Below, one piece after another: positions 43,401 through 46,400 of a DNA stretch of 64,000 nt. This DNA comes from Laetmonice hystrix. Lineage: Eukaryota. Every line of letters begins with the position of its first letter. Position 1 is the stretch's first letter. Under the pieces are notes generated by a model. The model saw nothing but the letters and a program-made list of their open reading frames with translations. It was not told the origin of the DNA and made no database searches. The DNA lies in the NCBI GenBank assembly GCA_965235115.1, contig OZ249436.1, forward strand, positions 12,402,001 to 12,466,000. The letters run 5' to 3'. The position numbers and the translations under genes were made by a program.

Positions 43401-46400
43401 AATGTAATTATTATAGACGAAGGCACCATATTTATAGTTAAGCGTGTGGTTGCAGGTGATGTTTTTCGGTGAGGAGGCTCTTGATGCTGGGGGAGTTAAA
43501 AAGGTACGTTTTAGAAAGATAACATCTACTTATTTTCAGAAGTGTGTATCTTTTATCTTTGTTGTCAGGTGATCTTCCTCGGGGAAGATGCAGTTGACCA
43601 GGGTGGTGTCACAAAGGTAGGTCATGACTTTAAGTGGCTTTCAGTCAGCAGGTCTTGTGCTACCAGAAATTGAATACAGTTACTGGGTATGTGTTGGTGT
43701 ATGATAATAAAATTAACTACAAGTTTGTCTGTCTATATTTTTATAGTGTTTGCCATATCTCCGAACCTTAATAAAAGTTTTATGGAGGGCAGATTGTCAT
43801 GCAACTATTTTTAAAGTACTAGTATGAAAATTTACTCAGTGTAAAACAGTAGGTTAAAGAAGTAGTTTAACATTTTTGGCACTTCTAAAGAAGAACTTTT
43901 ATTTTGAGATTACCAATAAGAATTAGATGTGTACTGTCATACGTTATGAAAGAAAGTAGTAAGATTTAGAATTTAGATACATGATGTACTGTAACTCATA
44001 TGTTTTAAACTTGCATATGGCAGGAATTTTTTCTCCTCATGATCCGGGAAGTGTTGGACCCAAAGTATGGCATGTTCAATTACTTCGAAGAGAGTAGGCT
44101 TCTGTGGTTCAATGAAAAGGTATGAAATTTATATCACGGAAATGAATCAAACCTGAAGTCCCGCCTCTTGAATGTAAAAAACAGGAATCCCTTCCTGTAT
44201 TGCATTATAAAAGTAATTTGAGAGCCACAACTGAAACTGTAAAACTTCAGGGCATCTTATGTTTAATGGAGAAAAGTCTTTCTCTGTTGTTAATTGAATC
44301 ATTTTTTGATTGAGCTGGGGCTGTCCGATGGTCACATACTGGTTAAATCTCATAGAGCAGCTACACTGTATTTCTGGAGATCATATTTTGATTTACTTGT
44401 GTGAGACATCTCAGTTCATCTCTGCTGTAGACGTTTGAGGACCCTGCAATGTTCAGTCTGATAGGCGTCTTGTGTGGCCTTGCCATCTACAACTCGACCA
44501 TCATTGACTTGAAGTTCCCACTGGCTCTCTTCAAGAAGCTCCTTAGGCAGCCCCCGACCCATGAGGATCTTCATGAACTTCGACCTGATATAGCTCGTAG
44601 TTTACAGAGCATGCTGGACTATGAGGGTGATGACTTTGAGGAAACCTTCTCTTTGACATTTGATGTGACTGTGGAGTTGTATGGTGAGATTAAGCAGGTC
44701 GACCTAATTCCAAATGGCAGCCAGGTAAATGTGACAAAGTTTAACAGACAGGAGTATGTGGATGCCTACATCAACTATGTTTTCAATACATCGACAGAGG
44801 AACAGTTCAAGGCATTCTATGAGGGATTTCATCGAGTCTGTGGAGGACGTGTGCTTGTAAGCATATATTTTTTTATTGACATTATTTAATGTGCAGTGTC
44901 AAAATGTACCGTTCATCTCATGGTTATCTCTTAGAATGTCAGAAGTATATGATAAAATGTAAAAAGTATTTTTAGTTCAGGCAGCAGGTAAAGCCCACCA
45001 CACACTATACGATTTTTTTATGATCAGATCGCATTCTGGGGCTTAAGACCCACTTATGACTTGCTTATGACTCACATATGACTTGCCTATGATGGTCGAA
45101 AGGGGTCGCAAGGCCCCAAACAGTCGATTCGAATTTTGAATCGGATCTCAAAGTGTGTGGGTGATTATGACTCGAGTCCTACAGTGTGCGGCCTACTACG
45201 TATCAACGCTAGGTGTAGGCAATGCTTCAGAGGGATACCGCTAGGGGGCGCAAGTGTATTTCCCGTGTTCGTCACTAAGGGCAATGGTCGTAAGTCTAGT
45301 AGTACAGTGCGCGATGCCTATCCAGGCCGCTTGGCGTATGTGTGGGGGCTTATGATTCTAGTCATATAGTGTGCAGGGGGGCGTGTGATTTGCCGCCCAC
45401 TGGGAATCGTATAGTGTGCGGCAGGCTTTACACTCTAGGTCAGATTGAAGCAACAGATAGTTTAGAGATATCTAATGGTAGCTTTTTATATTTCAGGACT
45501 TATTCCATCCACTGGAGCTCCAAGCTATGGTTGTAGGCAATGAAAACTATGACTGGGAAGAGTTAGAAAAGGTTGTTATTTTTATTTGCAATATGTAAGC
45601 TACATAATCCAGCAAATTGTATTTTGGATTTCAAATATCACAGCCATTATGTTTTTTCCTGGCAATGAGAATAGCTGAAAGATCTACTGGTAAGTGTAAC
45701 TTGTGAGTTGCTTACAGTTGACAATGCCCAAGTAATTGTTTTCCTGCGCTGACCAGTGGTTCTTGTACATGTTGAACTGGCACACTTTCAGAACTGTGAA
45801 TACAAAAATGGCTACCAAAGGAATCACGAAACTATCAAGTTCTTCTGGGAGGTCTTCAGGTCCATGTCACTTGAGGACAAGAAGAAATTTCTATGTAGGT
45901 TGTCTTGTTCAGTCCACAGCCTTATACCATAGAATGCTCTTGCGCTACATTTTTACTCAGCATTCTAGCTCAAATAGACATCGCAGGGGAGCAAATATTC
46001 ATGACATTTGATTTGTTATTAATGTTATCTTTTCATAAATTGCCTGATAATCATGATAACAGGAGTTTGTGATGTTGCCAAGGAGTTCCAGACAGAGTGA
46101 GATTACAAAGTGAATGTTTACAATAACAGCATTAAAAAAATTTCCAAATTTAATGCATTCAGAATTTAATACATTAGTGTTAACAGTAGCGCAGAGGAAA
46201 TTTAAGTAAGAATTTGTAGCAGATTTATATGAAGCGCATTGCTGAATAAGAGTTATCTGGTATTGTGGTTTTTCAGTATTCCTGACGGGTAGTGATCGCA
46301 TTCCAATTCACGGGATGAAATCCATAAAGGTAAGCACACCATGGAACAAACCCTTATTTTAGAGTGCAGACATGTGAACCACAATATTTTTCTCATCTCT

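Follow-up and report, generated by a model that had tools for sequence, protein, structure and literature searches.

What might a ubiquitin ligase gain by encoding the same loop of its HECT domain twice, in two adjacent exons of one gene? The question is raised by a 64 kb stretch of Laetmonice hystrix DNA (64,000 nucleotides, hereafter the window), in which a HERC4-like gene carries two homologous exons, A and B, separated by a very short intron. The gene is laid out as follows, where X4 denotes one of four sequencing runs taken up below:

34428 to 46747, forward strand: the HERC4-like gene from start to stop codon, modelled from tblastn matches and splice sites, with 25 coding exons counting both alternatives
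43021 to 43188, forward strand: the constitutive exon upstream of the pair, ending ...KKPLK and joined to exon B in X4 contig 19
44024 to 44119, forward strand: the constitutive exon that follows the pair, spliced to exon B in X4; its first residue, Glu, equals Rsp5 E502 by spacing
44431 to 44856, forward strand: a 426-nt HECT-domain exon (Pfam PF00632, E = 5.1e-39), spliced in X4
46646 to 46648, forward strand: the codon of the HECT C-lobe catalytic Cys (HTCFN motif), intact in sequence and translation

The tblastn matches of four HERC4 proteins, the Cys motif and the Pfam HECT match establish a protein in which RCC1-like repeats precede a HECT domain that has its catalytic Cys, which is the domain order of the small HERC ligases (HERC3/HERC4; RCC1-like domain plus HECT). 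The HECT exon is 50-63% identical to named HERC4 proteins, and a tree of 42 proteins, a quick search with SH-aLRT values and no bootstrap, places the gene among lophotrochozoan HERC4 proteins (SH-aLRT 93 for 18 rows), in an open fork with one annelid and one brachiopod sequence (91) and outside the molluscs. An earlier sequence-only reading of this DNA had named the gene HERC4, and the protein matches, the Pfam HECT domain and the grouping in the tree bear this out. The open frame runs to 1063 aa with either A or B, or 1047 aa with neither, and in the gene model the alternative exon supplies residues 746-761. Support from a spliced contig covers about 41500 to 45530 of the gene, the remainder being a homology model.

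Several other features of the gene and of the window deserve mention. One intron (41140-41418, donor GCAAGT at 41140) is of the GC-AG type in the part modelled by homology only, and two acceptors are of less usual form, namely GAG at 43018-43020, which an X4 joint confirms, and AAG at 46589-46591. The 426-nt exon at 44431-44856 corresponds to several smaller exons in the metagenome loci L004, L035 and L026 and in coral-like loci, and from this comparison the window lineage seems to have lost several introns within that interval while keeping the A/B pair. Intron 1 holds a near-perfect 161-nt palindrome (35067-35227), and a 444-nt intronic element with 27-nt inverted arms lies at 44988-45431, both resembling small non-autonomous transposons; a third intronic element with inverted ends, recognized by eye at about 38690-38850, contains the internal repeat D3. 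Other long open frames in the window are 6457-8187 (+), which by resemblance we take to encode C2H2-like zinc fingers, 18369-19178 (+), presumably related to GNAT acetyltransferases, 28036-29118 (-), which we regard as a glutamine-rich frame, and 58030-58503 (-), presumably akin to the C-terminus of an F-box/FIST protein.

The exon pair itself consists of the following parts:

43456 to 43503, forward strand: exon A, 48 nt, 16 codons, phase 0, of the D-A-GG class (from the sequence)
43483 to 43488, forward strand: codons 10 and 11 of exon A, the conserved Asp and the class-defining Ala (from the sequence; the Asp is the Rsp5 D495 equivalent by spacing)
43504 to 43568, forward strand: the A-B intron, 65 nt (from the exon model of the gene)
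43569 to 43616, forward strand: exon B, 48 nt, 16 codons, phase 0, of the D-E/D/Q-GG class (from the sequence)
43596 to 43601, forward strand: codons 10 and 11 of exon B, the conserved Asp and Gln (from the sequence; the other 16 pairs have Glu or Asp in place of the Gln)

Each 48-nt exon is preceded by AG and followed by GT in the window sequence, and the coordinates, spacing and translations first given for the two exons are confirmed. A and B differ at 16 of 48 nucleotides, with two codons identical, eight differing only synonymously and six changing the residue. These differences fall at 5 of 32 first and second codon positions versus 11 of 16 third positions (Fisher p = 0.0007), and this third-position excess, together with conservation across species, upholds the earlier proposal that selection acts on both copies. 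In the window, exon A is intact in both splice sites, frame and all invariant residues, and comparison with the six other genomic A exons gives 3-8 differences in 32 first and second positions and 7-11 in 16 third positions (p 0.005-0.09). A degenerate exon and splice-site pattern, which was built from A, B and their homologues and is informative only on a third copy and on the chance background, gives exactly two matches in the 64 kb window against a shuffle mean of 0.00 (n = 100); no third copy of the exon is found there by this pattern. A and B are tandem-duplicated homologous exons, both under constraint.

Are the two copies used, and are they used as alternatives? Four runs (X1-X4), all from one sample and none recorded as RNA, were aligned as contigs to positions 42700-44900. 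The contig sets of X1-X3 are unspliced, and exons A and B are found in them without differences; the pair is hence no artefact of the window's assembly. The DNA differences in these three runs amount to 23 substitutions, none of them within 43456-43616 and four in other exons (three synonymous, one Gly to Asp at 44627), which is too few for a test of selection. The change at 44627, a G-to-A substitution in runs X3 and X4 that puts Asp for Gly in the HECT N-lobe, is either an allele or an error in the window. X4 yields one spliced contig of 3306 nt with four GT..AG joints, including 43188-43569 and 43616-44024; it joins 43188-B-44024, which demonstrates that B is used and that A can be skipped. 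No A-containing RNA is seen in X4, the one spliced run, where nothing but the contig spanning exon A covers it and where contigs drop rare variants, and no A-B joint occurs in the contigs of the four runs from this one sample. The junction check suggested by the sequence-only reading thus recovers the path through B and no joining of A to B, at the level of contigs from a single sample.

These contigs bear on two other explanations. It is extremely unlikely that both exons are included together or that the pair is an artefact of assembly: joint inclusion would keep the frame (1079 aa), but the X4 contig skips A, the three DNA-like contig sets hold both exons, and two loop copies within 40 residues occur in none of the 368 proteins fetched (324 with the loop motif). 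The X1-X4 contigs and the protein set therefore contradict both forms of this explanation. A second possibility, which we consider improbable, is that the switch is real in relatives and exon A has recently died in this species. The sole spliced contig does skip A, though two low-depth (6.9) intronic contigs were assembled nearby, and the pyrimidine tract of A is weak. However, exon A retains its splice sites, frame and invariant residues, its differences from the six other A exons show the third-position excess, a weak tract is common to other species, and a rare variant is just what contigs would drop.

How widely is the pair shared? Thirty protein clusters were examined, 11 with named lophotrochozoan members, 11 with named non-lophotrochozoan members and 8 unnamed. 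Both versions, one per protein, are present in 7 of the 11 lophotrochozoan clusters and in ten mollusc and brachiopod species: Liolophura sinensis, Lingula anatina, Ruditapes philippinarum, Ylistrum balloti, Mizuhopecten yessoensis, three Haliotis species and two Patella species. One protein search was dominated by vertebrates, the only pairs gained there being those of Haliotis and Patella, and a further search returned ten proteins and no new A/B pair. In the eight isoform pairs of equal length, all 5-7 differences lie inside these 16 residues; the Ruditapes and Mizuhopecten pairs, the latter made up of two different annotations, differ in length and were compared at the exon only. All of these isoform pairs are database gene models, and RefSeq isoforms are usually backed by RNA reads. 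The use of B with A skipped here, the one-or-other proteins of ten species and the lack of any protein with both among the 368 support, at the level of gene models and contigs, the original suggestion that the exons are alternatives. One further gene model, XP_071108019.1 of Haliotis cracherodii (1034 aa), skips both exons in frame and thereby loses the ligation loop entirely; the protein, if genuine, would be dead for ligation.

The remaining four lophotrochozoan clusters have one version, which is acidic in Biomphalaria, Sepia and Elysia and has Ile in a Biomphalaria paralogue. The latter is a tandem HERC4 paralogue with Ile after the Asp, the main copy having Glu, and this gene duplicate may stand in for the exon A of other molluscs. 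A single class is found in all 11 non-lophotrochozoan clusters (corals, anemone, amphioxus, hemichordates, urchin, tunicate and insects) and in all eight unnamed clusters, and human HERC4 also has one version. The HERC4 of the vertebrate, amphioxus, hemichordate, urchin, coral and insect clusters thus differs from the window gene, which has two.

At the level of DNA, an exon and splice-site scan of metagenome contigs identifies 41 loci, six of which have both exons in the window's order, spaced by 57 (L004), 65 (L008), 77 (L018), 65 (L027), 51 (L035) and 122 nt (L036). The other 35 loci have one exon and comprise 21 related A-type loci, 11 coral-like loci, two that are apparently non-animal and one other. 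A relaxed search in 14 of these 35 single-exon loci finds no decayed second copy, the best score being 36 versus 64-67 for a real exon. A fast tree built on 14 of these 41 loci, from which the alternative exon was excluded and in which several rows are under half filled and L036 has no flanking exon, gives no phylum placement: pair-bearing loci fall outside the mollusc group in an open fork, and the loci of the single-exon group form a long branch. The best named tblastn matches of the 21 A-only loci (L001, L005, L007, L011, L025, L026, L030, L038 and 13 more) are mostly lophotrochozoan, and these loci may represent a lineage that lost B, the mirror image of the cephalopods and heterobranch snails, where B-type proteins alone are seen. 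Since A-only and B-only lineages exist, having both exons is dispensable. Chitons, bivalves, gastropods and the brachiopod diverged in the Cambrian or earlier, and a pair common to all four is dated accordingly.

Across species, the two exons form two sequence classes. The invariant Asp is directly followed, at residue 11, by Ala, Gly or His in A exons and by Glu, Asp or Gln in B exons in 17 of 17 pairs; ten protein pairs were themselves classed by this residue, so the independent test is given by the seven genomic pairs, classed by exon order, all of which agree. Within these seven, exons of one class taken from different species have 12.55 of 16 residues in common, versus 11.17 across classes and 11.57 for the A and B of one species. 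Among the 64 label flips, the true labelling scores best whether or not residue 11 is counted; the seven pairs are non-independent, and when near relatives are collapsed to five pairs the true labelling is the best of 16, where the lowest reachable value is 1/16. Position 2 is Met in 8 of 16 A exons and in no B exon, position 4 is Leu in 13 of 16 B exons and in no A exon, and position 9 leans to Ile or Leu in A and to Val in B, with positions 6, 10, 12, 13 and 16 invariant in all pairs. Ruditapes, which has a 17-residue A exon, counts towards the 17 pairs for residue 11, and the per-position table and identity tests were made without it. The same exon pair had been expected in relatives, and it is documented by the proteins of ten species and in tandem at 6 of 41 metagenome loci; its conservation across phyla and the one class-separating position go beyond what the sequence-only reading knew.

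Residue 11 also indicates which version came first. Among 45 named non-lophotrochozoan HERC4 proteins it is Ala in 35, Val in nine, Leu in one and an acid in none, and among 110 mostly vertebrate matches it is Ala in 101, Val in seven, Asp in one (a shark HERC3) and Glu in one (unnamed). The occurrence of Ala, Val or Leu outside Lophotrochozoa points to A as the general HERC4 form and B as a lophotrochozoan addition, and this variation among ordinary HERC4 proteins also marks the position as tolerant. In the window, exon B has Gln rather than an acid at this residue. Among codon pairs that encode the same residue, synonymous differences between species number 116 of 225 for A exons versus 157 of 245 for B exons, the pairs being non-independent; exonic splicing signals or base composition could underlie the lower synonymous divergence of A.

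Several independent duplications that converged on the contrast between a small and an acidic residue would offer a different history. The exons are too short for a history resolved by trees, and the metagenome loci have no supported placement, both of which leave room for such convergence. Nevertheless, we judge it very unlikely given the same order in all seven genomic pairs, the similar short spacer, and a class signal that reaches beyond residue 11 to Met at position 2 and Leu at position 4. We prefer a single duplication of the HERC4 exon, which would have taken place early in lophotrochozoan history, with both copies kept as mutually exclusive alternatives.

By what means would the two exons be kept apart? 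Because A, B, both and neither are all in frame, nonsense decay cannot enforce exclusivity. The A-B intron, at 65 nt, is the shortest of the 24 introns of the HERC4-like gene, to which the comparison of intron sizes in the window is confined; the next is 138 nt and the median of the other 23 is 269 nt. Over the seven genomic loci, the A-B intron measures 51-77 nt in six and 122 nt in L036, and in 6 of 6 loci no measurable flanking intron is as short. L004 has another intron of 86 nt, and some pair-bearing animals have other introns below 100 nt. From vertebrate and viral work, the excerpted text of PMC7969005 puts the threshold distance between donor and branch point at about 50 nt. An ordinary branch point would fall within about this distance of the donor of A, so that the very short intron would block A-B joining, and its length of 51-77 nt in six of the seven loci makes steric exclusion likely. 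The L036 intron is unexplained by simple steric exclusion unless its branch point is distant, and a scan of the seven A-B introns for branch-point motifs finds no consistent position. The likeness to known cases, namely OGDH intron 4a, alpha-tropomyosin and alpha-actinin (PMC7969005), would lie in a short distance from the upstream donor to the branch point; these cases, as the excerpts describe them, use a distant branch point in a longer intron, whereas in the HERC4 pair the whole intron is short in all loci except L036. In a fold of 43380-43700 there is no unusual RNA structure (z = -1.29; 8 of 100 shuffles fold equally well). Nor is either exon flanked by a convincing inverted repeat, the sole arm touching the pair (I7) being 24 nt at 75%. 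A docking-site mechanism is left without support by these two results.

The choice between the exons may be read from their 3' splice sites. In the window, pyrimidines occupy 7 of 17 positions of the tract before A and 14 of 17 before B, and A has the poorer tract in 6 of the 7 loci, which fits B as the default and A as the regulated form. We think it very probable, from these splicing signals, that B is the default exon, that A with its weaker 3' splice site is a minor or tissue-restricted form, and that the short intron prevents the two from being joined.

The meaning of such a choice depends on what the 16 residues do. The homologue P0004 aligns to E6AP without gaps across the exon stretch, inside the crystallised HECT domain (1c4z), and the Pfam HECT profile starts just after this stretch. 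The exon encodes Glu-x-x-x-Asp-x-Gly-Gly, followed by a conserved Glu seven residues after the Asp, which is the spacing of Rsp5 E491, D495 and E502. Exon positions 6, 9, 10 and 11, together with the residue that opens the next exon, equate to Rsp5 E491, L494, D495, Y496 and E502, a mapping based on residue spacing and on the numbering in the excerpted text of PMC3738095. On this mapping, the exon would form a strand and the acidic loop of the HECT N-lobe, which joins the C-lobe cysteine to build the ligation site. The positions that separate A from B flank the essential Asp, the essential residues being invariant in all pairs, and residue 11 would be equivalent by spacing to Rsp5 Tyr496, beside the ligation-organizing loop.

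This loop has been studied in other HECT ligases. The link between the Rsp5 acidic loop and ligation, which the sequence-only reading had cited, is in print, and a Tyr496 mutant has been proposed to mark the acceptor-ubiquitin site (PMC3738095). Residues 2283-2287 of UBR5 are described as a ligation-organizing loop, with R54 of the acceptor ubiquitin projecting toward E2287 (bioRxiv 2023.06.06.543850), and the Rsp5 and UBR5 papers are cited together for this loop in a review (PMC13196369). The HUWE1 loop mutant E4054A/Q4056A produces K6 chains in considerably larger amounts (bioRxiv 2023.06.05.543783). In the excerpted text of these papers, most evidence on the HECT acidic loop comes from alanine mutants, and a literature search returned no relevant report of an E6AP mutant at the equivalent of residue 11. 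The HERC4 exon encodes the same loop as Rsp5 491-495, UBR5 2283-2287, HUWE1 4054-4056 and their E6AP counterpart; in E6AP the Asp is followed by Glu, as in class B. As these sources present them, however, Rsp5, UBR5, HUWE1 and E6AP each have one fixed loop sequence per gene, whereas lophotrochozoan HERC4 has two.

With the essential Glu and Asp kept in both, the two forms are predicted to be active and to load ubiquitin normally. They differ on either side of the Asp, most clearly right after it, where A has a small residue and B an acidic residue or Gln, on a putative docking surface for the acceptor lysine or ubiquitin. We consider it fairly probable that the two active forms diverge in chain building, whether in its rate, its processivity or its preferred linkages, and not in the recruitment of substrates through the RCC1 domain. 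More specifically, and only tentatively, the acidic or Gln form and the small form may build chains of different linkage or length on the same substrates in different tissues, constituting a splicing switch for chain output that would predate the split of molluscs and brachiopods. Against a functional reading of this kind stand the single-version lineages in both directions, the Gln of exon B in the window and the tolerance of the position for Ala, Val and Leu.

In a further explanation, a minority possibility in our estimation, the pair is truly exclusive, the two enzymes are near-equivalent and the arrangement is kept for regulation and not for chain chemistry, for example by skipping both exons to give a ligation-dead protein or by tuning stability or autoinhibition. 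All essential residues (positions 6, 10, 12, 13 and 16) are shared, one version suffices in several lineages, and XP_071108019.1 lacks both exons in frame. Yet the class residue is held in 17 of 17 pairs across phyla, next to the ligation Asp, and equivalent versions would be expected to drift or to be lost. On balance, we favour as the probable overall reading a mutually exclusive HERC4 pair that arose by one early lophotrochozoan duplication and whose forms differ in chain building.

Homologous mutually exclusive exons are a well-known class. Substitutions derived from tandem exon duplication, such as OGDH 4a/4b, PKM and ACOX1 in the excerpted text of PMC8373072, resemble the HERC4 pair in that adjacent homologous exons of equal length and phase are used one at a time, are ancient and swap part of an enzyme; the pair differs from these in exchanging the ligation loop itself and in being apparently limited to lophotrochozoans. 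Sixteen gene-name terms for HECT ligase genes have no match in the human catalogue supplement of PMC8373072, in which OGDH, ACOX1 and PKM are found. A literature search, which covered listings and the beginnings of abstracts, returned no paper on the HERC4 A/B pair, in line with the impression of the sequence-only reading that it had not been described for HERC4. Tables of genome papers may list the pair, and it is apparently undescribed as such and implicit in public X1/X2 isoform annotations.

Splicing at the pair is conserved within a core ubiquitin enzyme in molluscs, brachiopods and related animals, and some lineages appear to have lost one exon or the other. Between its natural A and B versions, 3-7 of 16 residues change and the rest of the enzyme stays the same; this recurs in many species, with one residue always separating the two, and the role of the residues that flank the loop is therefore directly testable with natural proteins. 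The choice of linkage by HECT ligases is still called a long-standing question in the excerpted text of bioRxiv 2023.06.05.543783. If the two forms are equivalent, this would be one more ancient exon pair, of modest interest. If the chain-output switch is true, lophotrochozoan HERC4 would provide a natural minimal pair in which the N-lobe loop, especially at the residue that follows the ligation Asp, helps to set the linkage preference of a HECT ligase.
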